The notes under the pieces: generated by a model
Database searches by the model: none
What the model saw: only the letters and a program-made list of their open reading frames with translations
What the model was told of the DNA's origin: nothing
Part shown: in pieces, positions 4,006 to 32,293 of the stretch
Layout: each line of letters begins with the position of its first letter
Numbering within the stretch: position 1 is the first letter of the stretch
From: a virus
Length of the DNA stretch: 64,000 nucleotides
Reading direction: 5' to 3' (one strand)
IMG/VR virus record: IMGVR_UViG_3300043823_000198
Location: 1 to 64,000 of that record
Made by a program: the position numbers and the translations under genes

Positions 4006-4743
4006 ATGATGAATATGTATACCGACGAAGACAATGATAACACCGCACTTAGAATGGACGGTAAGATTACTGTACTAAACAAACCAAAAACAGGTGAAGA
4101 AGAATGTCATATGTTATGGCCAACACCAATTATCATGGCTAAACCTTTCTCTGATGATTTTATTGATAAACTCAGAGAAGATGTTCAATATTTGTTAAAG
4201 CCAGGAGCTGCTGGCACATTTAATCACACTGATCTTTGGAGTCTACCTGATATTCCTGAGACAATGGTAGCTGTTAAAGAGAAGATGGTTGAATTGATGG
4301 AGAAATACTATCGTCCTCTCGCTGAGATGCCTCTTCCAAAATTCACTGCGTCAAAGGGATATTTCAGATACTCAATGGGTAATAGTGTGTATAGAATCAC
4401 TCCGCATAAGCATGGTAACACACTTGGTGTTGGTATGCTTTATATTACAGCTGATGAAAGAAACCCAGGAAACCTAATGATGATGGACCCACGTGGTGGT
4501 GTTAACTGGACAAATCAATTCACTGCATTCAAGAAAGTTCGTGTTGAGCAGGGATTAATGTTGATTCATCCAGGATATCTAATGCACTTCGTTGAACCTT
4601 CGAACATGGACATGGGTATGCGCTATGGTAACAGACTCGCTATTATTTCAAATCTGCATAGAAACCATGAAGATTTTATTCAGACGCTCAAAGAGAATGA
4701 TGAATATATTGCCAGAACAGCATCTGGAGATCTAGAAGCATAA
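4006..4743 (+). CDS. 2OG-Fe(II) oxygenase-like (TIGR02466-like, HxH)
   Basis: LWPTPI, PHKH, GNLMMMDPRG, HPGYLMHFVEP, RLAIISN. Confidence 0.75.
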   Translation: MMNMYTDEDNDNTALRMDGKITVLNKPKTGEEECHMLWPTPIIMAKPFSDDFIDKLREDVQYLLKPGAAGTFNHTDLWSLPDIPETMVAVKEKMVELMEKYYRPLAEMPLPKFTASKGYFRYSMGNSVYRITPHKHGNTLGVGMLYITADERNPGNLMMMDPRGGVNWTNQFTAFKKVRVEQGLMLIHPGYLMHFVEPSNMDMGMRYGNRLAIISNLHRNHEDFIQTLKENDEYIARTASGDLEA

Positions 4744-5324
4744 TGTATATTTTTGACGATGTTGTTGACAAAGAAACACAGGACAAAATAGAGAAATCTA
4801 TATTCAGCAAAGAAACCAAGTGGATTTTTGCTAGAACTGTGTTCTATGATGGGACAAACCCTGAGGTAAATGATACTCAAAGAAATTCTTTAATGTCGTT
4901 TACCAATCTGATGATGGATCCAGTTAACCAACCATTATCTGATCCAAACATAGAGTTGTATAAGAAACCTATACAAACAGTCGTTGGTCTCAACGAAATT
5001 CTTCAAATACGTGCTCAATTACAACTGCCTGTCCTAACAGAGAAGAATAAATTATATGGTGTCCCTCATGTTGATGGATATAGAGATAAACCTTACATGG
5101 TTGGTGTCTACTATGTAAATGATTCAGATGGACCTACATATATCTTTAAACAAACTACCAACAACACAACCCCACTGAATGTAATAAACGGAAAACTGGA
5201 TGTTGAAACAACTGTTGAGCCAAAAAAAGGTAGACTCTTGATATTCAATGGTAACATATATCATGCTGTTGGTAAACCAAAGAGAGACGTAAGAGCAGTT
5301 CTTAATTACCATTTTACATTATGA
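4743..5324 (+). CDS. 2OG-Fe(II) oxygenase
   Basis: PHVD, YYVNDSDGPT, PKKGRLLIFNG..YHA, RAVLNY. Confidence 0.8.
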   Translation: MYIFDDVVDKETQDKIEKSIFSKETKWIFARTVFYDGTNPEVNDTQRNSLMSFTNLMMDPVNQPLSDPNIELYKKPIQTVVGLNEILQIRAQLQLPVLTEKNKLYGVPHVDGYRDKPYMVGVYYVNDSDGPTYIFKQTTNNTTPLNVINGKLDVETTVEPKKGRLLIFNGNIYHAVGKPKRDVRAVLNYHFTL

Positions 5325-5977
5325 ACGATTTAACAATTTTAGATAATTTTTACTCTGATCCTATTGATTTCATTCAAAATTTGAATGGAGATTATCCTAT
5401 ATCTGGATGTGGTAATGGCAAAAGAAGTTTAGATTTAAGCGAGATAAACAAACAGATTTATTATGATGTTCGTTCTGCTATCTTCAGAGCACATAACATT
5501 GATGGGAGAGGATTAACATTTGTTACATACTTCACTGAGCATGCGTACGATGAAATTGAGATTTTCAACCAAAGGTTTGTTCATATCGATGGTAGAAACC
5601 CAGATAGATTGTTGACGTCTTTCAAGGAATATAATATCATACTTGGTGGTCAGATATATCTAACACCAGATCCTGATCCAGAAGCAGGAACAAAGATTTA
5701 TTCTTTGAAACCAGAAATAAACTGGACAGAAAGCGAGCAAGTTGATAGGTTAGTGAATCACTACAGAAGACCAAGAGATTTATACGATAGCGGTTCTATC
5801 GGAATAGAACAGTACAAAACGTTGCATGCTGAATATCATAACAATTTTAATTTAACATGTGATGTTAAAAATGTCTTCAATAGATTGGTTTCTTGGAAAG
5901 GTAAAACATTGCACAGTGATGTTGTTACAAAGAACATGCCAAAACGATTAAGCCAATATTTTTTTGTGATGCGATAA
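5321..5977 (+). CDS. 2OG-Fe(II) oxygenase (DUF6445-like)
   Basis: ILDNFYSDP, HID, IYLTP..GT, NVFNRLV..LHS, RLSQYFF. Confidence 0.7.
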   Translation: MNDLTILDNFYSDPIDFIQNLNGDYPISGCGNGKRSLDLSEINKQIYYDVRSAIFRAHNIDGRGLTFVTYFTEHAYDEIEIFNQRFVHIDGRNPDRLLTSFKEYNIILGGQIYLTPDPDPEAGTKIYSLKPEINWTESEQVDRLVNHYRRPRDLYDSGSIGIEQYKTLHAEYHNNFNLTCDVKNVFNRLVSWKGKTLHSDVVTKNMPKRLSQYFFVMR

Positions 5978-6621
5978 TGTATACAGTAATTGATAATTTT
6001 TATGAACAAGAACAATTTGATAAACTTCAAAGGATGCTGCTTGGACCAAGGATGCCATGGTTCTATATGCCTCAGATCTCTGTCCCACCATGGATAACTG
6101 TTAATGATCCTAATGCTGTTGAGACAGATGGGCTACATAATGTGATTGTTGATAGAGAAAGAAATTATATTAGTCAAGAGTATAGGGTTCTTTATCCATA
6201 TCTTGTAAAAATGATGGCAATTCTTGGATACACAGAAGAAAATCTCTATCGAGTAAGAGCAGCAATGAAATGGCCGAAGCCAGGATTTGGTTCTGATATG
6301 TATAACATCCCACACATTGATGCGACATGGCCAAATAAAACAATTGTTTTCTACCTCAATGATAGCGATGGTGATACAAGACTGTTTCATCAGCGCCAAC
6401 AAAAGATGGACGTAACGATGGAACAACTTCCATCAGATGTTTCAGAAGAACAGTTAATTTTATACGGAAACCAGTTTATCAAAGAAGGTTTCACTGTTAT
6501 GGAAACAGTTACGCCTAAGGCAAACAGATTGTTAATTTTTGATGGTATGATGTATCATACTGCTGGTATTCCAGTAAACACTGAGCGCAGAGTTATTTTA
6601 AACATAAACATACGAGAATGA
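5977..6621 (+). CDS. 2OG-Fe(II) oxygenase
   Basis: PHID, FYLNDSDGDT, PKANRLLIFDG..YHTA, RVILNIN. Confidence 0.8.
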   Translation: MYTVIDNFYEQEQFDKLQRMLLGPRMPWFYMPQISVPPWITVNDPNAVETDGLHNVIVDRERNYISQEYRVLYPYLVKMMAILGYTEENLYRVRAAMKWPKPGFGSDMYNIPHIDATWPNKTIVFYLNDSDGDTRLFHQRQQKMDVTMEQLPSDVSEEQLILYGNQFIKEGFTVMETVTPKANRLLIFDGMMYHTAGIPVNTERRVILNINIRE

Positions 6622-7241
6622 TGGAAATATATAACACACCACTTCCGCTATATTTTAAAAATCATGTTCCTGTTCAGAACTGGGATGCGATAAGAAATAA
6701 ATGTGATGATCTTCTCGCTATCATGCCAGACCAACATGGGTTAGAGAGCGGCAATGCTAAGAGTTCTTACGATGTTAGAGATGTCAACGGAAATTTAATA
6801 AACCCACTCGGCATTGATTGTTTCAATTATATCAGACCACACATATGGGAAGCTGTTAAATTTGCGGCAGAGCATTGGTTGATGGAATACGATAAGTACG
6901 ACATTACTCAGTGTTGGACTAATCGTCACCTTCCTGGTGGTAAGACACTGTTCCATAAACATGGCGCTTCAACACAGATTGTCATTGCATATTACCTTAA
7001 TGTTCCAGAGAATAGTGGAAATCTGTTGATCGTTGATCCACTCGAGTATCATTGGAGTGGATACCACAGCGTTAGGAATGATATTAACAATCAGAACGGA
7101 TGGGTAGTGCCAGTTAAAACAGGAGACATGGTTATCATGCCAAACTTTCTGATTCATGGCACAGAAGAAAACACAAGCAATGATAATAGGTATGTGTTAA
7201 CAGTAAACATACAGGGATCTTTTAAAAAGGAGATAATATGA
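6618..7241 (+). CDS. 2OG-Fe(II) oxygenase-like (TIGR02466-like, HxH)
   Basis: WTN..HKH, YYLNVPENSGNL..DP, GDMVIMP..LIHGT, RYVLTVN. Confidence 0.75.
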   Translation: MMEIYNTPLPLYFKNHVPVQNWDAIRNKCDDLLAIMPDQHGLESGNAKSSYDVRDVNGNLINPLGIDCFNYIRPHIWEAVKFAAEHWLMEYDKYDITQCWTNRHLPGGKTLFHKHGASTQIVIAYYLNVPENSGNLLIVDPLEYHWSGYHSVRNDINNQNGWVVPVKTGDMVIMPNFLIHGTEENTSNDNRYVLTVNIQGSFKKEII

Positions 7242-13296: not shown

Positions 13297-13402
13297 AACC
13301 ATGTTGGGTTTAATGTAATAGATTGGTTTTCAGTTTCCATACAGACTCAAATGAAGCCATTAATTCATATAATACAGCTTAACAGACTTCTTAAAGACCA
13401 TT

Positions 13403-13462
13403 AATAATACCCTTACAGTTTACAGGGTTATCCCTTTACATTATTACAGAATACGGTAAAAT
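13403..13462 (+). promoter_or_regulatory. Palindrome + promoter cassette, copy 3 (degenerate)
   Basis: ATACCCT-N10-AGGGTTAT; TTTACA(13435)-N16-TAAAAT. Confidence 0.6.
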
Positions 13463-13482
13463 AATGATTTTAGGAGATAAAA

Positions 13483-13632
13483 ATGTTTGAAGTTAAATTA
13501 AATAAAGAAAAATTCTATTTTTTAACCTTTTCTGAAATTAACGATTTTTTTAGTGAGGTTATTATGGCCGAGGGCGCTGATTCTGCTAAAATAACTATAA
13601 AAATGGTCGAATTAAAACCCGAACTCCTATAA
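13483..13632 (+). CDS. Hypothetical protein (49 aa), absent from ORF track
   Basis: AGGAG RBS; MFEVKLNKEKFYFLTF...; stop lies in the next palindrome. Confidence 0.6.
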   Translation: MFEVKLNKEKFYFLTFSEINDFFSEVIMAEGADSAKITIKMVELKPELL

Positions 13633-13722
13633 CCCTACCGAGTCTAGGGTTATTAAAATAACCCTTTACATTAATACAAAAATAGGTATAATTACTCTAT
13701 AGTTTGAAGAAAAGGATTTGAA
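13629..13722 (+). promoter_or_regulatory. Palindrome + early promoter + leader cassette, copy 4
   Basis: ATAACCCT-accgagtct-AGGGTTATT; 13664-13696 is identical over 33 bp to 8131-8163. Confidence 0.85.
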
Positions 13723-13909
13723 AATGGAAAAAGCACTGACCGTGGCAGAACTGATCGCTGTACTGAGCAAGATGCCAAAAGACATGACTGTGCGTATGGG
13801 CATGAACATGGAGTACGAAGCAGGTGTAAGAGCCGATATGGTTGAAGTGTTTACCACACTTGAAGGTGAGAAATTCGTCTACATCACAGACACTCCGTCC
13901 GCCGATTAA
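13718..13909 (+). CDS. Hypothetical protein
   Basis: LTVAELIAVLSKMPKDMTV N-terminal motif, common in phage small proteins. Confidence 0.7.
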   Translation: MKMEKALTVAELIAVLSKMPKDMTVRMGMNMEYEAGVRADMVEVFTTLEGEKFVYITDTPSAD

Positions 13910-13926
13910 TTTGAAAGGAATATATT

Positions 13927-14100
13927 ATGACAAACCCAATCCCTCATACTGGTCTATTTGCAAGTCCTACACTGGAACAAATTCTTGAGCAAATAGAAAC
14001 TTTACCAAAGTCTCAGCGTGCAACTGCTCATCTTGTCGCCTGTATGACAATGAATGCCTGCCATAAACTTGTTGCAGAACAAATCGAAAGCCAAAAATAA
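13927..14100 (+). CDS. Hypothetical protein (57 aa), absent from ORF track
   Basis: TTTGAAAGGAATATATTATG leader; MTNPIPHTGLFASP...MTMNACHKLV. Confidence 0.7.
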   Translation: MTNPIPHTGLFASPTLEQILEQIETLPKSQRATAHLVACMTMNACHKLVAEQIESQK

Positions 14101-14108
14101 GGTATAAT

Positions 14109-14312
14109 ATGCGGGCAATTACAGATAGAATCCGTATGGTATTATTTGGTATTTTTGTTATCATTGTTGGTTTATACAGCCCTAGAACCTGTATGAGGGC
14201 AATTGGTGAAGTTGTCGGTGATTCTGAGGAGTATAATGCCATTAAAATCCGCGAACTCGCTCGTCGTGATTACATAGAACGTTACACTGGAGCAACTCAA
14301 CGGATTGACTAA
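14109..14312 (+). CDS. Small membrane protein
   Basis: Hydrophobic stretch MVLFGIFVIIVGLY. Confidence 0.6.
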   Translation: MRAITDRIRMVLFGIFVIIVGLYSPRTCMRAIGEVVGDSEEYNAIKIRELARRDYIERYTGATQRID

Positions 14313-14405
14313 TAACCCTTCACTGTATAGGGGTATTTACATAGTGCTTGACATTTATTGCAGTTGGGGTATAATTACTCTATAGTTTGAAAAAAGGAAT
14401 ATATT
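14311..14405 (+). promoter_or_regulatory. Palindrome + early promoter + leader cassette, copy 5
   Basis: AATAACCCT-tcactgtat-AGGGGTATT; TTGACA(14348)-N16-TATAAT; TACTCTATAGTTTGAA shared with copy 4. Confidence 0.85.
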
Positions 14406-14645
14406 ATGACTGAATTTGAAAGAAATTGCTACGGTATGAGTGAAGATGATATCCGTGAGCAATATATGAATTCCATTACAGCTCAACTGTCTGGTCTAGA
14501 AATGGTTGCTATGGGTATCCTGAGTGACTGCCAAGAAATGCTGGCAATGGGTGCTGGTCCTCGCTCTGTTGAATATGTTCGTGTTCGTATGAATATCGCC
14601 AAGTTCATTCTGTCAGAGATGATGCAAAATAAAACAACTGTATAA
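14406..14645 (+). CDS. Hypothetical early protein
   Basis: AAGGA RBS; MTEFERNCYGMS..GILSDCQE..NIAKFIL. Confidence 0.75.
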   Translation: MTEFERNCYGMSEDDIREQYMNSITAQLSGLEMVAMGILSDCQEMLAMGAGPRSVEYVRVRMNIAKFILSEMMQNKTTV

Positions 14646-14654
14646 GGAGTTGCA

Positions 14655-14813
14655 ATGAAAGGATCTATTCGTGTTATCGCTGGTCTGCTTATTGTGTTCG
14701 GTGCTGCTGGTGGTCTGGATACTGCGCCTGATTGTGCGCTTTCTACTAATTTTCTTGTTGCTGTGGCTGGTCTGCTACTTATGTACTCTGGTGTGAAAGC
14801 CATGAAGGGCTGA
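14655..14813 (+). CDS. Small two-TM membrane protein (52 aa), absent from ORF track
   Basis: TAAGGAG RBS; MKGSIRVIAGLLIVFGAAGGLD...LVAVAGLLLMYSG. Confidence 0.7.
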   Translation: MKGSIRVIAGLLIVFGAAGGLDTAPDCALSTNFLVAVAGLLLMYSGVKAMKG

Positions 14814-25271: not shown

Positions 25272-25866
25272 CTTTAAACAAATTTTCCCACATTGTCAAG
25301 ACCCAGAAGGATGGGTCAAGGCATTTACTGACACTCTTGCTGGTTATGGTATCGACCAACCACATCGTGTCGCAGCTTTTATTGGCCAGTGTGGTCATGA
25401 ATCTGATGGATGGACAACTTTCGAAGAGAACTTACACTATTCCGCAGAAGGATTAGAAAAGACTTTCGGTTCACACTTCCATGGTGACGCAGAAGAATAT
25501 GCTCATCAACCAGAAAAGATTGCCAATCGTATCTACTCTAATCGTATGGGTAATGGAGATGAAGCATCTGGTGATGGATGGAAATATCATGGACGTGGTC
25601 CAATCCAATTAACTGGCAAAGCAAATTACACTAAATTTGCACAAGAGATGTTCGATGACTGGCAAAATTTACTTGATAATCCTGATTGGGTAAGTTATGA
25701 TAAGTCTTTCTCTCTAATGTCAGCAATTTGGTTCTGGAACGCACATAATCTAAACAAATATGCCGACGAAGGTGATATCAAAACAATGACTAAGATCATC
25801 AATGGTGGCTATCTTGGTTTAGAAGAACGTGAAGAACTTTACAATAAATTATTACCATACTGTTAA
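25255..25866 (+). CDS. GH19 (chitinase-class) endolysin
   Basis: AAFIGQCGHES, EENLHYS, YHGRGPIQLTGKANY, AIWFW, TKIINGG. Confidence 0.9.
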   Translation: MIAVDNFKQIFPHCQDPEGWVKAFTDTLAGYGIDQPHRVAAFIGQCGHESDGWTTFEENLHYSAEGLEKTFGSHFHGDAEEYAHQPEKIANRIYSNRMGNGDEASGDGWKYHGRGPIQLTGKANYTKFAQEMFDDWQNLLDNPDWVSYDKSFSLMSAIWFWNAHNLNKYADEGDIKTMTKIINGGYLGLEEREELYNKLLPYC

Positions 25867-26516
25867 TGCGAAATTTTATATATTATGATTTTCCAAAACT
25901 TGAACGTGTTACAACCGATGGGATGCGATTATACAATACCCCATCGGGTAAACCATATCCTTCCGTTACAACAGTCACAGGACTCCACAATGCAAAGGGG
26001 ATTGCAGAATGGCGTCGCAGAGTTGGTGAAGAAGAAGCAAACAGAATCTCAACCAGAGCAAGCTCAAGAGGAACTCGCATTCACAAATATTGCGAGGACT
26101 ATCTACGAGGAAATATATTCGAAGCCGATATGTTCGACCTCGAAATGTTTAACTCAATTAAACCCCAGCTCGACCAAATCGACAATATTCACTGTCTGGA
26201 GACTCCGCTATATTCAGACTTTTTACAAGTCGCAGGAACAGTTGACTGTATCGCAGAATTTCAAGGTAAATTATCTGTTATAGACTTCAAAACAGCAAGT
26301 AAACCAAAAGACCGAGATGATATTTACAATTATTTCATGCAAACAGCAGCTTATGCTGTCGCTTTTGAAGAACGAACTGGAATACCAATTGGTAGATTAG
26401 TCATCATCATGGCAGTTGAAAATGATGACCCAAGATGGTTTATTGAGAAACGTGATAATTGGATTGCTGGTTTTAGAAAACTTCGCTTAGAGTATAAAAA
26501 TCTAAAAGGTATTTGA
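25866..26516 (+). CDS. PD-(D/E)XK (Cas4-like) exonuclease
   Basis: YPSVTTV, RGT.IH, AGTVDC, IDFKT, Q..AY. Confidence 0.85.
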   Translation: MRNFIYYDFPKLERVTTDGMRLYNTPSGKPYPSVTTVTGLHNAKGIAEWRRRVGEEEANRISTRASSRGTRIHKYCEDYLRGNIFEADMFDLEMFNSIKPQLDQIDNIHCLETPLYSDFLQVAGTVDCIAEFQGKLSVIDFKTASKPKDRDDIYNYFMQTAAYAVAFEERTGIPIGRLVIIMAVENDDPRWFIEKRDNWIAGFRKLRLEYKNLKGI

Positions 26517-26517
26517 C

Positions 26518-27231
26518 GTGTATTTTGATAATTATCCAGAGTTTATTGATAATGATGTAAGAAAAAACAGAGAACAACTTACAGTAACCTCTGAATCTTT
26601 ATCTAAGCGATGTTCTGTTATTGTTCCAGAACATCTAGTTAAAAACAAAACTGTTCTTGATTTGGGATCAGCGCTTGGTGCCATGGGACATTATTCTTTA
26701 CAACATGGCGCAATATCATATACTGGTGTTGAGATTCAAAAGAACTACAGAGATAAATCTATAGAGTTGTTGGGAAGAAATAATGCAAATTTTAAAATAC
26801 TTAATAGTATAAATTCAGTAACTGGTAAGTATGATGTTGTATTAGCCTGTGGCTTTATACACGCATTTTTTGATGTTTTTGACATATTGAAAAAAATATG
26901 TTCTTTCTCTGACAAATACGTTATAATTGAAACGCATAACCCATCATTTGGCGATTCACCAGTAATATCGTTTAATCCAAATGGAAATATGATTAGGAAT
27001 GATGGTACGTCTTTTAATTTTAGCGGACTTGAGACACTACCAAATAAAATAGCAATTGATATTATAATGTCAGTTAATGGTTTTGTTGTTGATGAAAGAT
27101 TATTTCCAGAAAAAATAAAGAATACTCATGATGGGTATAACTCAAACGACCAAAATTCAAGGTTTATTTGTCGATACATAAAAGGTAAACGATCAACCAC
27201 TCTTGAGGATGTAGTAAATGTGGGAATTTGA
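26518..27231 (+). CDS. Class I SAM-dependent methyltransferase (CmoB-like layout)
   Basis: KTVLDLGSALG, YTGVE, YDVVLACGFIH, VIIET. Confidence 0.75.
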   Translation: MYFDNYPEFIDNDVRKNREQLTVTSESLSKRCSVIVPEHLVKNKTVLDLGSALGAMGHYSLQHGAISYTGVEIQKNYRDKSIELLGRNNANFKILNSINSVTGKYDVVLACGFIHAFFDVFDILKKICSFSDKYVIIETHNPSFGDSPVISFNPNGNMIRNDGTSFNFSGLETLPNKIAIDIIMSVNGFVVDERLFPEKIKNTHDGYNSNDQNSRFICRYIKGKRSTTLEDVVNVGI

Positions 27232-27838
27232 TGATTCAGTTGCCAAAAGGTTTCAACATGAGGCGATCTGCCACATTCCAGATTATGAAAGAGTAATTGA
27301 TATCTGTTTAACTTATACTGATATGAATTACAGTAAAGAAGCATTTATTATTGATATTGGTAGTGCTCTTGGATATACGATGGATAAATTTATTTCAGCA
27401 GGGTATAATAATGTGTATGGTATTGAAATAAGTGAATCTATGCGTAATTCTTCTCTACATAAAGAAAGGGTATATAATCCATTATTCTTTCCACCAACAA
27501 AATTGTGGGATGTTATTATAATGAATTGGACGTTACATTTTATAGAGAATAAAGTTGAATATTTGAAAAACATATATTCTGGATTAGAAGACACTGGGAC
27601 TTTTATTCTTTCTGATAAAACAGTACAGTCAGAAAGAATAAAAGAAATGTATTATAGATTTAAATCAGAAAATGGAGTTTCTGATGAGTATATTAAGCAA
27701 AAAGAGATTATGTTACAGGATAGTATGTTTATCGATAGAATGGACTGGTATCTAGACGCCTTAGAACATGTTGGTTTTACAGTAGAAATTATAAACAGCA
27801 AATATGGCTTTCATACATTTTTGTGTAGAAAAAGATGA
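27218..27838 (+). CDS. CmoA-like SAM-dependent transferase
   Basis: WEFDDSVA.RF, IPDY, DIGSALG, NWTLHFI, LSDK, K..NGVS...I.QK...L...M parallel E. coli CmoA motifs (recalled). Confidence 0.75.
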   Translation: MWEFDDSVAKRFQHEAICHIPDYERVIDICLTYTDMNYSKEAFIIDIGSALGYTMDKFISAGYNNVYGIEISESMRNSSLHKERVYNPLFFPPTKLWDVIIMNWTLHFIENKVEYLKNIYSGLEDTGTFILSDKTVQSERIKEMYYRFKSENGVSDEYIKQKEIMLQDSMFIDRMDWYLDALEHVGFTVEIINSKYGFHTFLCRKR

Positions 27839-28110
27839 GTATGTACGAAAAAGACCATTTAGAAAAAGCTCGTTTGTATTCAAATATGGTAGAGAATAAA
27901 ATATTCTACTTTAAACATATGTGGTGGGCTCTTCACTCTGCATTTCTTTTAATGTTTTGGTCGATATTGATGTTGATTCATGCAGTCATCCCTCAGTTTG
28001 TTGGATTTTATGTTATCGAGAAACTTGTTTCATATCTAAAACATTTAAAAGAAATACATCCAGAAGATCCACTACTGAAGAAAGTTACTTTCGATGAATC
28101 CGCTAATTAA
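27835..28110 (+). CDS. Small membrane protein (DUF6356-like)
   Basis: HL..YFKHMWWAL...LIHAVIP. Confidence 0.6.
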   Translation: MSMYEKDHLEKARLYSNMVENKIFYFKHMWWALHSAFLLMFWSILMLIHAVIPQFVGFYVIEKLVSYLKHLKEIHPEDPLLKKVTFDESAN

Positions 28111-28714
28111 GATAAATCTGCCGAATCTATCTTCTGAGTTAGAATCTAAACTTATTTCTATCGCAAATGGATATCAGCAATTTAAATATAGTAATGGAAC
28201 TATTGGGCAAAAATATTATGAGAAATCCGAATCAGTAGACGATATTGAGAATTTGAAACGACTCTATGGATTCAATGATATACCCCAACATAGATCTCGT
28301 GAAATTGGTAATCTTACTAATGATGTTTTGCGTGAAATGGATTGTTCTTTTATGGAGAACATCAATATGTATGTTCAGGTTATTGAAAGTAGAGATTCTT
28401 TTATACATACTGATGGTGGGCATAGAATATGTTCATTATATTATCTTATATCGGACAATGGCTCGAAAACAACATTTTACAAATCAGATAAACCTCCTGT
28501 TATGTCAACAGTTTGGAATCCAATGGACGTTTACCCGTATTACTCTTACATAATGAAACAACACGAATGGCATGCGTTTTCCCACAACGATATACATAGC
28601 GTAAACGATATATCTGGTTTGAGGGTTGGATTGATACTTGATTTTACACCTAAATTTAAAAAGTATGAAGATTTTGTTAAATTTCTTAAGAGAGCGAATC
28701 TAATAAGTGAATAA
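28094..28714 (+). CDS. 2OG-Fe(II)/cupin oxygenase-like
   Basis: IHTD, LYYLI, TTFY, WHAF..IHSV, RVGL. Confidence 0.65.
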   Translation: MNPLIKINLPNLSSELESKLISIANGYQQFKYSNGTIGQKYYEKSESVDDIENLKRLYGFNDIPQHRSREIGNLTNDVLREMDCSFMENINMYVQVIESRDSFIHTDGGHRICSLYYLISDNGSKTTFYKSDKPPVMSTVWNPMDVYPYYSYIMKQHEWHAFSHNDIHSVNDISGLRVGLILDFTPKFKKYEDFVKFLKRANLISE

Positions 28715-29510
28715 TTACCCTGCGTATAAAAACGGAACATACTGTCAGATTAAAGATCTGACAGTTTCAATTCTAGACTTTGGTTTTATCCATTCAGACG
28801 CAACTTATGATGTTATGTCTGTTAAAAATGGTGTCGTCAAAGATTTTGATGAACACGTGAACCGATTTATGGATAATTGTAATTTTTGGGGTCTTAATAC
28901 TCCAAACGATTTCCATATTAAAGAAATTATTATGGAGTTGGTAAATACATCTCCAACTAAAGACTTATTGGTTTGGATTTGCGTAACACGTGGAACACCG
29001 ACCACAGGAAATCCAAGAGATCTTGGTTCATGCGAACAAAACTTCTTCGCATACACAAAACCTTACTATGGGTTCAATCTAACAAATACTGCCACTGTTT
29101 GTCTAGCCAAACAAAGAAGAAATACCGCAATCAATCAAAGAAGAAAGAATTTTGCTTGGAATGATTTAACTCTTGCTCAGTTTGAGGCGAATTCAAGAGG
29201 ATTCGACACAGCTATTCTATTGGATGATAATGGTTTCGTGACTGAAGGTCCAGGATTCAACGTTGGGATGATACGAGGCGAACATATTATTGCTCCAGCT
29301 AAAAATTGTTTGCTTGGTGTAACTATGTCAAAGGTTAAAGAATTGGCTGAAGATAAGTTTTATTATTACAACGTAACACCAGAAACATTCAAATCAGCAG
29401 ATGCTATGTTCTTGACATCAACTGCTGGTGGTGTTATTTGTGTTACTAAGTTTGAAGACACTGTGTTTGAGAATAATAGATTATTATCATGGTTACAGAA
29501 CAACATATAA
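28707..29510 (+). CDS. PLP fold-type IV aminotransferase, (R)-amine-transaminase-like
   Basis: DFGFIHSDATYDV, H..RF, KNFAWNDL, TEGPGFN, L.GVT, TSTAGG. Confidence 0.85.
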   Translation: MNNYPAYKNGTYCQIKDLTVSILDFGFIHSDATYDVMSVKNGVVKDFDEHVNRFMDNCNFWGLNTPNDFHIKEIIMELVNTSPTKDLLVWICVTRGTPTTGNPRDLGSCEQNFFAYTKPYYGFNLTNTATVCLAKQRRNTAINQRRKNFAWNDLTLAQFEANSRGFDTAILLDDNGFVTEGPGFNVGMIRGEHIIAPAKNCLLGVTMSKVKELAEDKFYYYNVTPETFKSADAMFLTSTAGGVICVTKFEDTVFENNRLLSWLQNNI

Positions 29511-30313
29511 ACGGAACCTACTATAAATATTACCAAGAAGAACAAAACAAACATTTATTGTTTTTACTTCCTGGCCAATCCCTTTCTCCGAGAGCATTCT
29601 GGGAATTTAAACTACCAGAAGGTAAGACACATGTAGATTATTTTGTCGAGTCTGGTATAGACGTAATTCTGTTTGACCCTGTTGGATATGGCAATAGCAA
29701 AGATTCATATCCTTATAATAGAAATGGATACGCAGAGCAAATAAAAACCGCAACAAATACTATACATAAAGAATATATTTGTAAAACTCTGTTTGGGTTT
29801 TCTTCTACTACAGCACCAGCGTTAATCTCTGGTAAACATGGTGGGTTTTTTGATAAAGTAATTATACACAGCCCATGCATCAGAAACGAAGATAGATATT
29901 TTATCCACCATGGTTTAGTCTTCTCAACGAATATGCATAGATTAAAAGAAGAACGCATTTCGAAAGTCAGCGACAGGCTTATCCCTAAATCTAATAAGAT
30001 AGATAACTGGGATAAATCTGTTATTGATGTTATTGGCAAAGATAGTTGGGAAGTGCCATCTCAGGTTGTTTATGATATTAACAACTTTTGGTTTTATCAT
30101 AAACAACATGGGTTTGATCCGAGCGAAGTTTCTCCTATTATGGTTATAAATGGAGAATATGACTTTGAAGTTACTGGTGGTGGGTATGATGTTTTTAAAA
30201 GTTTATTTCCATCATTTGTTGAGCGAATCGTTCCAAATAGTACACATTTTTCTATGTGGGAAAACAATTCAAATATTACAAGAGAATATATAATCAATTA
30301 TTGTTTAGGATAA
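29489..30313 (+). CDS. Alpha/beta hydrolase
   Basis: LPG, DPVGYGNS, GFSS nucleophile elbow, GEYD, NSTHF. Confidence 0.8.
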   Translation: MVTEQHINGTYYKYYQEEQNKHLLFLLPGQSLSPRAFWEFKLPEGKTHVDYFVESGIDVILFDPVGYGNSKDSYPYNRNGYAEQIKTATNTIHKEYICKTLFGFSSTTAPALISGKHGGFFDKVIIHSPCIRNEDRYFIHHGLVFSTNMHRLKEERISKVSDRLIPKSNKIDNWDKSVIDVIGKDSWEVPSQVVYDINNFWFYHKQHGFDPSEVSPIMVINGEYDFEVTGGGYDVFKSLFPSFVERIVPNSTHFSMWENNSNITREYIINYCLG

Positions 30314-30314
30314 T

Positions 30315-30971
30315 ATGTTAGATTTTAAAGTTACTCCAATATTCCCAGTTGGTTTATATCAAGCGAGATTGGATTCTAATGTAATGATGAGTTCATTACC
30401 GCACCTTAGAGAGTTTGTTAAAGAAAGCACATATTCCAAAGATATGGTTGTGCACAGCGTTAGTTCGTTTAACAGATATATTTTAGAGAGCCAACAATTA
30501 ACTTCTCTAAAACTTCATCTTGAAGAGCATCTAGAACAATACAAGCGTCATGTTATTGGAGAAACTACTGATAGGTTTAAACTTTACATAACAATGTCAT
30601 GGTGTACAGGATTGTTGCCAGGAAATACGCACCAAGAACATAATCACGCAAACTCTATTATATCTGGTGTTATGTATTTTGATAACCCACCAAATGCTTC
30701 TCCATTTGTTTTACATAAAGATGATTCTTCTTGTGGTGGTTTTATAAATCTTTCTCCAACAACTAATACGGATTTCTCAAAGATTATGCACTTTGTTCCA
30801 CCTATAAATGGGACATTATTATTATTTCCTTCTCATTTAAAACATAGAGTTCCAAAGAACGAAACAGAAACACAAAGGAACAGTTTGGCCTTTGACACGT
30901 TTTTTGAGGGTGAGATTGGAGCAAGTCGAAATATTTTAAAAATGTCTAGAATCAATCAACAGGGGATTTAA
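30315..30971 (+). CDS. 2OG-Fe(II) oxygenase-like (TIGR02466-like)
   Basis: IFP, SW, HNHANSIISGVMY, LLFPSHLKHRV, RNSLAFD. Confidence 0.8.
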   Translation: MLDFKVTPIFPVGLYQARLDSNVMMSSLPHLREFVKESTYSKDMVVHSVSSFNRYILESQQLTSLKLHLEEHLEQYKRHVIGETTDRFKLYITMSWCTGLLPGNTHQEHNHANSIISGVMYFDNPPNASPFVLHKDDSSCGGFINLSPTTNTDFSKIMHFVPPINGTLLLFPSHLKHRVPKNETETQRNSLAFDTFFEGEIGASRNILKMSRINQQGI

Positions 30972-31199
30972 ATGAAATTTTATGAAAAAGCGATGCGATC
31001 ATTGGGTAAAGTGGTTACTTGGCGCATTCTTGTTACAATTACCAATTTTATTGGTGGATGGTTGGCGTCTGGTTCTTGGACCGTTGGTCTTGGGGTTGTA
31101 TCTTTTGCTCTGGTTGTTAACAGTGTAATTTATTATTTCCACGAACGAGCATGGAATGCAATTGATGCTGGTAAGGAAATACTTGACAAACAAGAATAA
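30972..31199 (+). CDS. DUF2061-like small membrane protein
   Basis: RSLGKVVTWRI...YYFHERAW. Confidence 0.75.
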   Translation: MKFYEKAMRSLGKVVTWRILVTITNFIGGWLASGSWTVGLGVVSFALVVNSVIYYFHERAWNAIDAGKEILDKQE

Positions 31200-31211
31200 A
31201 TAGAGTATAAT
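31183..31211 (+). promoter_or_regulatory. Sigma70 promoter of the tmRNA gene
   Basis: TTGACA-N17-TATAAT. Confidence 0.8.
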
Positions 31212-31216
31212 TAAAG

Positions 31217-31538
31217 GAATTGTTGTAATCCCTTCAAAGCGAAGGACTTCTGGACGTGGGTTCGACTCCCACCATCTCCACCAGAAGTATTCTAAACTGG
31301 ACGCAGGATCAGAGAAGGTTGAAAGTGGGTTGATCACCACAAATAAGCTGGAGATTAAGAATATTTCTGATGGGGATGCCATGGTTTCGACAGGGGTAGA
31401 TAGTAGAGAAGGCAACACGGTAGGCGATGACCGTAAATCAAGCAAACTAAGTAAATGCAAACGACTCTGTCTTCGCATTAGCAGCCTAAACGCTGCTTAG
31501 GGTTTCGGTAGGTTTCCTCGTAACAGAATAACCTACCA
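31217..31538 (+). ncRNA. ssrA: Circularly permuted (two-piece) tmRNA, tag ANDSVFALAA
   Basis: T-arm GTGGGTTCGACTCCCAC and CATCTCC-A-CCA (ends 31283) precede the 5' strand GGGGATG (31372) with a G3-U70 pair; tag ORF 31457-31489. Confidence 0.9.
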
Positions 31539-31560
31539 TTTCTAAACATTAAGGAGTATT

Positions 31561-32025
31561 ATGAAAAAGAGTATTTTGTTAGTAGCTTTGTTAGCAACTT
31601 TCGGTGTTGCACAAGCTGTTGAAGTTGGTGTTCTTGGCGCCAAAGATGAATCTCATCAAGATCAAGGTAAAGATCATTCTCATTACGGTTTAACTGTAGG
31701 TGAACAATTTGGTAAAGTATCTGTCGAAGGCGAATTTTCTGTTTTGAATCAAAGTGGTAATGATCAAGAAAAGTATTCTGTTATTGCTGGATACGATGTA
31801 TATAAATTAGGATTCGTTACTCTTACTCCTAAAGCTGGTGTTTCTTATTTAAGTAACACAGGAAATGTTGCTGATGGCTATGCTATTCGTGCTGGAGTTG
31901 GAGCTTCTGTTCCACTTAGCGATAGCGTAAAGGCAGGTGTTGATTTTTACCATCAGTATGGACAAAATCGTGTAAGCGCATATGATGGTAACACTATTCA
32001 AGCGAGCGTTAAGTACGCATTCTAA
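31561..32025 (+). CDS. Outer-membrane beta-barrel protein (OmpA/Ail-Lom-like)
   Basis: Sec signal peptide (AQA), alternating beta strands, C-terminal Y-x-F. Confidence 0.8.
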   Translation: MKKSILLVALLATFGVAQAVEVGVLGAKDESHQDQGKDHSHYGLTVGEQFGKVSVEGEFSVLNQSGNDQEKYSVIAGYDVYKLGFVTLTPKAGVSYLSNTGNVADGYAIRAGVGASVPLSDSVKAGVDFYHQYGQNRVSAYDGNTIQASVKYAF

Positions 32026-32026
32026 T

Positions 32027-32293
32027 ATGAATATTCAACCAATGAAAAAGTTCGTTCTTGTTGCAGAGAACGCAAGGAAAAATACCACTGATTCTGGTAT
32101 TATCCTTGAGGGTGCTGGGTTTGATCAATCAAAAACAGGTACAGTCCTAGCCATTGGTCCAGACGTCACCGATGTAAAAGTCGGCGACGTCATCTATTTG
32201 GAATGGAACAAAGGTTCGGTTGTTAAGATTGGTGATGCTCAACGTGTTATGATTAAAGAAGAATTCATTGTTGCTGTTGTAGATTCAGAATAA
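32027..32293 (+). CDS. groES: GroES-like co-chaperonin
   Basis: IQPM..VLV..TDSGIIL..GTVLAIGP.V..VKVGD. Confidence 0.85.
   Translation: MNIQPMKKFVLVAENARKNTTDSGIILEGAGFDQSKTGTVLAIGPDVTDVKVGDVIYLEWNKGSVVKIGDAQRVMIKEEFIVAVVDSE

Follow-up and report, generated by a model that had tools for sequence, protein, structure and literature searches.

A mobile cassette of marine myoviruses encoding a CmoA relative, a partner outside the CmoB family and a predicted (R)-amine transaminase

Introduction

Only four natural uses are known for the rare cofactor carboxy-S-adenosylmethionine (carboxy-SAM); the latest of them, the 5-carboxymethylcytosine of phage DNA, was published in December 2025 (PMC12783734). 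The four natural cascades each combine a CmoA homologue with a dedicated transferase: CmoA/CmoB, TglE/TglF and MccS with MccB's C-terminal domain (MccB-CTD) (PMC10491745), and the phage system CmoA/CmoX/CmoY (PMC12783734). Here we describe a block of eight tightly packed genes in a 64,000-nucleotide stretch (hereafter, the window) that forms the opening part of a 165,633-bp IMG/VR virus record, IMGVR_UViG_3300043823_000198, rated complete; its source is an uncultured, T4-like marine myovirus. The block encodes a CmoA relative (MT2), a second protein of the class I methyltransferase fold (MT1), a transaminase (AT4), a hydrolase (ABH), two oxygenases (unk206 and 2OG218) and two small membrane proteins. 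We read it, with a probability of roughly 0.4, as a module for group transfer from carboxy-SAM, joined to enzymes that oxidise, transaminate and hydrolyse a small amine or carboxylate metabolite.

The likeness to CmoA/CmoB (TIGR00740 and TIGR00452/PF08003; structures 4gek, 1im8 and 4qnv) consists of two adjoining, translationally coupled class I methyltransferase-fold genes, with MT2 aligning full-length with CmoA and keeping its cofactor-binding residues. The differences are that the gene order is reversed here, that MT1 (237 aa) has neither the CmoB N-terminal domain with Lys91 nor Arg315, and that MT2 carries Glu199; further, MT1 and MT2 are often fused, and one bacterial genome has both systems.

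The CmoA/CmoX/CmoY system of Synechococcus phage S-B43, which makes 5-carboxymethylcytosine and its glycine amide (PMC12783734), is similar in belonging to a marine myovirus, in having a phage CmoA with Glu199 and a dedicated transferase, and in the nearby ATP-dependent PP-loop enzyme that is found in relatives of our cassette. However, MT1 is not a C5-cytosine methyltransferase (CmoX bears the SPPC motif), and none is encoded in the genome; the PP-loop protein of the relatives is not a recognisable CmoY/AsnS homologue and is missing from the window; and the cassette adds a transaminase, a hydrolase, oxygenases and membrane proteins. TglE/TglF (3-thiaglutamate) and MccS/MccB-CTD (Bacillus microcin C) likewise place a CmoA homologue and a transferase in a biosynthetic cluster, and MccB-CTD illustrates that a carboxy-SAM transferase need not resemble CmoB (PMC10491745). 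They have no other cluster genes in common with the phage block; TglF keeps the CmoB residues, whereas MT1 does not, and neither a leader peptide nor an MccB-type adenylating enzyme was found at this locus.

The transaminase has a different set of relatives. AT4 resembles (R)-selective amine transaminases (7wud, 3wwh, 4ce5) in an exact motif 1, a loop arginine and the absence of motifs diagnostic of branched-chain aminotransferases (BCAT), D-amino acid transaminases (D-ATA) and aminodeoxychorismate lyases (ADCL), and differs in being shorter (267 aa), in having no N-terminal helix, in a rare L-V-W motif 2, and in being phage-encoded within a conserved gene context. The (R)-selective enzymes are valued in biocatalysis; to our knowledge, their natural roles and substrates are largely not known.

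The searchable literature yielded no description of MT1-type CmoA partners or of this cassette, so that the pathway still counts as undescribed, as a first-pass annotation of the window had proposed, with a logic close to that of the known two-enzyme carboxy-SAM cascades. New here are the link of transaminase, oxygenases and hydrolase to the MT1-MT2 pair, the mobility of the cassette, a bacterial operon with Nramp, the coexistence of an MT1-MT2 fusion with cmoA and cmoB, and the argument over Glu199.

Results

The seven open reading frames (ORFs) lie where the first-pass annotation had placed them, and homologues of all seven are kept in other contigs, which marks them as real genes and not chance ORFs:

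26518-27231, plus strand: MT1, predicted class I SAM-dependent alkyltransferase, 237 aa, GTG start
27218-27838, plus strand: MT2, CmoA-family protein, 206 aa
27835-28110, plus strand: DUF6356-like small membrane protein, 91 aa
28094-28714, plus strand: unk206, protein of predicted Fe(II)/2-oxoglutarate (2OG) oxygenase fold, 206 aa
28707-29510, plus strand: AT4, fold-type IV pyridoxal phosphate (PLP) enzyme of putative (R)-amine-transaminase type, 267 aa, GTG start
29489-30313, plus strand: ABH, alpha/beta-fold hydrolase, 274 aa
30315-30971, plus strand: 2OG218, 2OG-Fe(II) oxygenase, 218 aa

MT2, the CmoA relative

MT2 is a probable carboxy-SAM synthase of the CmoA family. By hhalign, 7 MT2 homologues aligned with E. 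coli CmoA at 99.7% (E 6e-26, residues 14-242), bearing out the initial reading of the gene as CmoA-like, and its PDB matches were YecO (1im8) and CmoA (4gek). The CmoA-specific lid and N-terminal helix are retained across full MT2 in the hhalign comparison; among the CmoA cofactor residues, a MAFFT alignment showed Tyr39, Asp62, Gly64, Asn132 and Phe137 to be kept and conservative replacements at two positions (Asp89 to Glu and Glu164 to Asp).

A further CmoA residue, Arg199, forms a salt bridge to the carboxylate of carboxy-SAM (PMC3663124). The corresponding position holds Glu in six phage MT2s, Lys in the fused MT1-MT2 protein of contig L014, Arg in bacterial fusions of Thiotrichales type and Tyr in those of operon type (both discussed below). 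We considered whether Glu199 rules out carboxy-SAM synthesis by MT2, and rejected this. Synechococcus phage S-B05 has a CmoA with Glu here that matches the S-B43 protein (SpCmoA) at 100% identity, and SpCmoA is a proven carboxy-SAM synthase that outpaces the E. coli enzyme tenfold (PMC12783734); Glu199 in MT2 is thus no argument against carboxy-SAM synthesis.

MT1, the partner of MT2

MT1 is a predicted class I SAM-dependent alkyltransferase, an obligate partner of MT2 that stands outside the CmoB family. All of its Pfam methyltransferase matches were under cut-off, and neither PF08003 nor TIGR00452, the CmoB family models, matched it; in the fused relatives, CmoB-family matches were weak (PF08003 among precomputed domains, and NF011650 at E 5e-6 for the L014 fusion). 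An hhalign comparison with E. coli CmoB reached 74% over the Rossmann core only (CmoB residues 119-268). About 40 residues precede motif I in MT1, and the ~100-residue N-terminal domain of CmoB that bears Lys91 is lacking; in the same alignment CmoB Tyr200 falls on MT1 His115, and Lys91 and Arg315 have no aligned counterpart. These are the features to which the carboxy-SAM preference of CmoB is ascribed: Lys91, in the N-terminal domain, binds the carboxymethyl group together with Tyr200 and Arg315 (PMC10491745). With no family match and an alignment confined to the Rossmann core, we rejected the identification of MT1 as a CmoB: of the SAM methyltransferase with CmoB-like layout that had been annotated, the class I methyltransferase stands and the CmoB-like layout does not.

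The closest sequence matches of MT1 in the PDB, obtained with a 17-homologue profile, were the N-termini of PRMT1-type enzymes (E 2e-6); read by eye, the alignment lacks the PRMT1-type double-E loop, and no DNA methyltransferase motif of the DPPY or PCQ type was seen in it. An AlphaFold2 (AF2) model of MT1, with a predicted local distance difference test score (pLDDT) of 90.6, has as its fold neighbours a tied set of class I enzymes (Z 15.4-17.2), mostly small-molecule methyltransferases, which include ChlM, CcbJ, NmbA, ToxA, UbiG and a sarcosine/dimethylglycine methyltransferase; CmoB fits the model with a template-modelling (TM) score of about 0.6.

Fused and free-standing MT1-MT2 pairs

MT1 and MT2 adjoin in every context found. 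Phage contigs L011/L012/L022/L025 and L023 carry the pair alone, without the remainder of the cassette. Elsewhere the two are fused, with MT1 N-terminal, into a protein of 474-530 aa, which we found in at least seven metagenomic contigs (L014/L026/L028, L027, L031, L032, L033 and L035 bear fusions of 474-524 aa) and in four sampled bacterial genomes. A fusion query recovered at least 179 database clusters, many with weak PF08003 matches, and their source names include Thiothrix, Leucothrix, Thiolinea, a Beggiatoa-like organism, Myxococcota and Bdellovibrionales.

The bacterial sample comprised 400 genomes of the class containing G001, a metagenome-assembled genome (MAG) titled Gammaproteobacteria. 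Four of the 400 have a full-length fusion:

G110: fusion, canonical cmoA (adjoining cmoB) and canonical cmoB
G046: fusion (the sole CmoA-like sequence) and canonical cmoB, no canonical cmoA
G025: fusion, neither canonical cmoA nor canonical cmoB
G279: fusion, neither canonical cmoA nor canonical cmoB

As G110 keeps cmoA and cmoB beside the fusion, the fusion is not simply the tRNA enzyme.

The neighbours of the fusion are of a recurrent kind. Contigs L033, L049 and L050 have in common an operon of a cupin, the fusion, an asparagine-synthetase-like protein, two small ORFs and Nramp. The asparagine-synthetase-like protein (506 aa) is without the glutaminase Cys2, and gave no match to the PDB by sequence; a relative of the operon's cupin is present in the phage cassette of L009. 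A second Nramp-like gene lies near the operon (L049:5108-12616) and a response-regulator-like gene upstream of it. The fusion of L035 is 16 nt downstream of gltX, and that of L032 is near RtcB. No AT4-type genes were found near bacterial fusions.

In phages, the pair or the whole cassette repeatedly neighbours genes for TctC and DctP solute-binding proteins and for DUF2061 proteins, and also a Na+/solute symporter; L027 has two TctC-like binding proteins and L006 one. In L038 (9989-12220), genes for a Vut_1/YhhQ-type transporter and a further methyltransferase come after a distant MT1-like gene (290 aa).

Transaminase, oxygenases, hydrolase and membrane proteins

The first-pass annotation had assigned the five remaining genes to a small membrane protein, an Fe/2OG-type oxygenase, a fold-IV PLP transaminase, an alpha/beta hydrolase and a second oxygenase, and each of these assignments agrees with what follows.

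AT4 matches PF01063 at 111 bits. In the PDB it scores best, at E 7e-36 to ~1e-25, against (R)-selective amine transaminases or close relatives that bear BCAT names, while E. coli BCAT and ADC lyase reach only ~1e-3. A published filter for (R)-selective amine transaminases requires motif 1, [HR]-x4-Y-x-[VT]-x-[HSAPT], and motif 2, [YF]-V-[EAQN] (PMC8048526). AT4 has an exact motif 1 (H29-SDAT-Y34-D-V36-M-S38), in which His29, Tyr34 and Val36 are invariant in 5 homologues and position 38 is Ser or Ala, both permitted; its motif 2 is L-V-W, Leu at position 95 and Trp at position 97 being listed as rare variants. The exclusion motifs YxR (BCAT), YxQ/RxH (D-ATA) and K/R97 with RGY (ADCL) are all absent. 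The loop Arg is invariant, as is the catalytic Lys of KNFAWNDL, which aligns with that of KNYQWGDL. By the published motif filter, which it passes with a rare variant in motif 2, AT4 is a putative fold IV enzyme of the (R)-amine-transaminase type.

Outside phages, AT4 homologues occur without the MT1-MT2 pair. In a gammaproteobacterial MAG, a DUF6356 homologue lies directly upstream of the AT4 homologue. A MAG contig labelled Peribacteria (L015:835-2483) reads TGA as glycine: in its AT4 homologue, six in-frame TGA codons fall where phage AT4 has Gly, for five of the six at a column that does not vary across the five phage AT4s, and the gene upstream is a homologue of the 261-aa alt261 that precedes AT4 in L009.

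unk206 had no match in Pfam, PHROG or NCBIfam, but is a predicted Fe(II)/2OG oxygenase by its modelled fold and an invariant HxD...H triad (His105, Asp107 and His168); Arg177, at the position of the 2OG-binding Arg, is also invariant. The AF2 model (pLDDT 89.2) is a double-stranded beta-helix, for which Foldseek returned PHD2, FIH and proline hydroxylases, and VIA returned proline 3-hydroxylase (Z 10.7), a nucleoside-antibiotic hydroxylase (10.3), AspH (9.6) and the amino-acid halogenases BesD/HalA (9.1). The family is tiny: a search of 1.84 billion proteins matched only 89 representative clusters at E<=1e-3.

In ABH the Ser-Asp-His triad is invariant in 5 homologues and in canonical order, as Ser105 (FGFS), Asp225 (GEYD) and His253 (NSTHFS). 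The Abhydrolase_1 match is weak in the window (20 bits, under cut-off) and above cut-off in the L004 orthologue; a neighbour search gave generic alpha/beta hydrolases only. 2OG218 matches PF13759 (75 bits), TIGR02466 (72 bits) and phrog_81, and its EHNH, His177 and Arg188 are invariant. The DUF6356-like protein (PF19883 at E 1.7e-4, under cut-off) has one hydrophobic segment, at about residues 29-62, and its gene keeps a constant position in all cassette relatives.

Conservation and mobility of the cassette

As first annotated, the block sits between an exonuclease gene and the transfer-messenger RNA (tmRNA), with an eighth gene in between:

25866-26516: PD-(D/E)XK exonuclease, upstream neighbour of the block
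30972-31199, plus strand: DUF2061 small membrane protein, 75 aa, eighth gene, abutting 2OG218
31169-31543: permuted two-piece tmRNA, tag ANDSVFALAA, downstream neighbour of the block

The order MT1, MT2, DUF6356, oxygenase slot, AT4, ABH is the same in L005, L006, L007 and L009 (the last being one lineage with L010 and L024), all uncultured phages, at protein identities of 45-93%. The surroundings vary: exonuclease and tmRNA flank the cassette in the window and L005; in L007 and L009 it lies within or after an array of 2OG-oxygenase paralogues; and in L006 an exonuclease lies downstream. A fixed order despite three different flanking arrangements shows that the block moves as a unit, and we regard it, on this comparative evidence, as a mobile, modular auxiliary cassette of marine myoviruses. 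In the sampled phage contigs, AT4 and ABH occur beside MT1-MT2 only. The window itself has, at 4006-7241, five consecutive ORFs (245, 193, 218, 214 and 207 aa) that all match 2OG-Fe(II)-oxygenase families (PF13759, PF13640 and DUF6445) and are homologous to the L007/L009 array.

Within this order, parts of the cassette differ. The slot after ABH holds 2OG218 in the window, and X250 with a 375-aa PP-loop (SGGIDS) protein in L005; 2OG218 is also present in L006 and L009, as a variable accessory member. In L009, unk206 is replaced by the unrelated alt261, which has no detectable homology to unk206 and no match in the PDB; a weak language-model lead connects it to 2OG oxygenases or halogenases. 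The PP-loop protein of L005 matched the PDB, CmoY and AsnS around the P-loop only or at low probability. X250 is absent from the window's genome, and the only PP-loop gene in the 165.6-kb genome is a Q360-type paralogue at 68198-69295, beside DctP and a radical SAM gene. That region (65572-69295; L053) encodes a radical SAM protein (463 aa), an 89-aa ORF, a DctP-type protein (324 aa) and the PP-loop protein (365 aa). The last of these shares 50% identity with the Q360/Q353 genes, with which the cassette region of L006 and L009 closes.

The window and L005 are 81-85% identical in DNA, with breaks in the 3' two-thirds of MT2 and in mid-ABH. Protein identity is 95-97% for exonuclease and PhoH, 92% for AT4, 77% for MT1, 74% for unk206, 70% for DUF6356, 58% for ABH and 53% for MT2, and this uneven divergence suggests that parts of the cassette may have been exchanged. 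In L005, the closest relative, DUF2061 and the tmRNA are separated by an inserted gene, at 13319-14746 (= L004:11706-13133), for a 475-aa protein of the sodium:solute symporter family, which the window lacks. The DUF2061 protein (PF09834, 53 bits) lies 3' of the cassette in L005, L006 and L009, and adjoins TctC, DctP and MT1 in L034; it is probably associated with the cassette and marks its 3' edge.

Gene-neighbourhood conservation, which the first-pass annotation had proposed as a check on its cluster, is thus of two kinds: the core order is kept in four other lineages, while the MT1-MT2 pair alone, AT4 without the pair, and the swapped slot after ABH show genes that also go their own ways. 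The pattern that would have counted against the cluster, independent occurrence with shifting order, is thus seen only in part.

Discussion

The cassette looks like a pathway that builds or alters a small molecule. In its first module, MT2 would convert SAM and prephenate to carboxy-SAM, and MT1, as a dedicated class I transferase of non-CmoB type, would hand the carboxymethyl group to an acceptor. The second module, consisting of the Fe/2OG-type oxygenase, AT4, ABH, the optional second oxygenase and two small membrane proteins, would prepare or tailor that acceptor: a carbonyl would be formed by oxidation and turned into an amine by transamination, and an ester or amide would be hydrolysed. 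A plausible order is oxidation, transamination to an amine, then N- or O-carboxymethylation, with hydrolysis at some point; in relatives with the ATP-dependent PP-loop protein, amidation of the new carboxylate could come last. The by-product of CmoA is phenylpyruvate (PMC10491745), which, once released, could be aminated by the fold-IV transaminase.

A carboxy-SAM synthase with a dedicated transferase is the most economical account of MT2 and MT1 because it fits their fusion, the homology to CmoA, the pattern in G046 and the four published precedents. The first-pass annotation had left the target open among tRNA, DNA, virion glycans and a metabolite; neighbours and fold matches narrow this list, tilting it towards a small molecule. 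We consider the target most likely to be a small amine- or carboxylate-bearing metabolite rather than tRNA or DNA, because G110 has cmoA and cmoB besides the fusion, because ligase, cupin, Nramp, solute-binding-protein and symporter genes recur nearby, because the fold matches of MT1 and unk206 are of small-molecule character, and because AT4 is of the amine-transaminase type.

Several observations weigh against this proposal. MT2 scores 52.9 bits (E 4e-14) against TIGR00740, far under the curated equivalog cut-off of 193, which the L014 fusion (89 bits) also fails to reach, and no MT1 residue could be identified as selecting carboxy-SAM, although the invariant Arg15, Arg18 and Arg215 are candidates for binding its carboxylate. 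MT1 and MT2 are found without the second module, and AT4 without MT1 and MT2, so that the two modules may be neighbours and not one pathway. The window's copy is without the PP-loop protein and cupin found with the pair elsewhere; the phage's DctP and Q360-type PP-loop genes are 36 kb from the cassette, and transporter genes may lie nearby only through the clustering of auxiliary metabolic genes (AMGs) in islands. Finally, some bacterial fusions lie beside gltX or RtcB and the phage carries tRNAs, as would fit an RNA target.

A narrower version of the proposal, which we think rather doubtful, is that the phage carboxymethylates an amine made by its own oxygenase and (R)-amine transaminase; this would bring the natural carboxy-SAM pathways to five and be the first of them predicted to have a free metabolite as its target in a virus. 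Its product would be an aminocarboxylate, possibly metal-binding or transport-related, given the Nramp, solute-binding-protein and symporter neighbours, and it would be the first defined natural pathway context for (R)-selective amine transaminases. A widespread and often fused pair of a CmoA-like protein and a non-CmoB transferase suggests additional carboxymethylation (or related) chemistry in marine phages and bacteria; the cassette gives an (R)-amine-transaminase-type enzyme a conserved genetic context; and any answer, be it a metabolite, tRNA or DNA, would reveal a new means by which the chemistry of the host is reprogrammed by marine phages.

Among the alternatives, modification of tRNA or other RNA survives best, and we still hold it to be unlikely. 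MT2 would again make carboxy-SAM, and MT1 would be a short CmoB analogue that carboxymethylates a hydroxylated wobble uridine, the hydroxyl being supplied by one of the Fe/2OG oxygenases. Homology to the enzymes of uridine 5-oxyacetic acid (cmo5U) formation argues for it, as do the weak CmoB-family matches of fused forms (PF08003, and NF011650 at E 5e-6 for L014), the tRNA-Leu(UAG), tRNA-Thr and other tRNAs encoded by the phage, the tmRNA adjoining the block, the bacterial fusions 16 nt past gltX and near RtcB, and the two genomes (G025 and G279) with a fusion and without canonical cmoA or cmoB. Yet MT1 is devoid of the CmoB N-terminal domain and Lys91, has His at Tyr200 and nothing at Arg315; canonical cmoA and cmoB coexist with the fusion in G110; the fusion is repeatedly linked to ligase, cupin, transporters and solute-binding proteins; and the amine transaminase, hydrolase and membrane proteins would be left without a role.

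Less probable again is that MT1 and MT2 are ordinary SAM methyltransferases that methylate the amine formed by AT4 stepwise, giving a methylated amine or betaine-like compound. Glycine/sarcosine methyltransferases, which methylate an amine successively and are sometimes fused, offer a model. The Glu or Lys at the Arg199 position of phage MT2s, the score of MT2 under the CmoA equivalog cut-off, the N-methyltransferases among the fold neighbours of MT1 (CcbJ, NmbA, ToxA and the sarcosine/dimethylglycine enzyme) and the amine-forming type of AT4 would all suit such a scheme. However, the proven SpCmoA likewise has Glu199, MT2 keeps the CmoA-specific lid and N-terminal helix, bacterial members of the fusion family keep Arg199, and a carboxylate handle would go well with the linked AsnS-like ligase.

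Lower in our ranking stands the view that there is no single pathway, and that the block is a mosaic of independent auxiliary genes gathered in hypervariable islands. It would explain why the modules occur apart, why 2OG oxygenases have been gained or lost at several points with the slot after ABH swapped between close relatives, why a second array of five oxygenase paralogues exists at 4006-7241, and why tight packing reaches unrelated upstream genes. It sits poorly with six genes whose order and orientation are unchanged across five lineages at identities as low as 45%, with their joint movement between three flanking arrangements, and with the restriction of AT4 and ABH to the side of MT1-MT2 in the sampled phage contigs.

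Compact cassettes are a common phage format for DNA-hypermodification pathways. Least probable of all, nonetheless, is a pathway in the style of CmoA/CmoX/CmoY, in which a carboxymethyl or other group on phage bases would be elaborated by oxygenases, transaminase and, in relatives, ligase, for restriction evasion: the marine cyanophage precedent, in which CmoA, CmoX and the AsnS-like CmoY give 5-carboxymethylcytosine and its glycine amide (PMC12783734), the presence of these three genes in S-B05 and the PP-loop (SGGIDS) protein of cassette relatives favour it, but no C5-cytosine methyltransferase (PF00145) was found anywhere in the 165.6-kb genome, with control genomes positive, which led us to reject a CmoX-type system, MT1 has no DPPY- or PCQ-type motif in the alignment read by eye, the PP-loop protein has only the P-loop in common with CmoY/AsnS and is absent from the window, homologous fusions lie in bacterial chromosomes with Nramp, and the membrane proteins are left unexplained.

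Gene packing and genome context

The ORF junctions are, in order, overlaps of 14, 4, 17, 8 and 22 nt and a 1-nt gap, and the GC content of the ORFs is 0.33-0.34 against ~0.36 for the window, so that the compactness and AT-richness first described are real. The same overlapping or abutting packing runs on upstream through PhoH, endolysin and exonuclease; as it spans the whole gene run, the translational coupling is no evidence of a pathway. A scan for internal promoters or terminators in the block gave nothing convincing: the perfect sigma-70 consensus TTGACA-17-TATAAT occurs only at 31183-31211, at the 5' edge of the tmRNA. The T4 late motif TATAAATA was not enriched, and the isoelectric points (pI) of the cassette proteins did not discriminate between candidate targets.

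Searches against cultured phages by blastn returned short unrelated matches only for the cluster; tblastn gave weak ilvE-like matches for AT4 and none for MT1. The window's PhoH is <52% identical to cyanomyophage PhoH, and its exonuclease DNA has weak similarity (blastn) to that of a pelagimyophage. The close relative L004/L005 has the identical tmRNA tag, ANDSVFALAA. At 187-2716 the window encodes five tRNA genes, two for Met and one each for Leu(UAG), Trp and Thr (anticodon AGT by ARAGORN). Just past the tmRNA, at 31561-32293, lie genes for an outer-membrane beta-barrel-like protein (154 aa) and a Cpn10/GroES homologue (103 aa).

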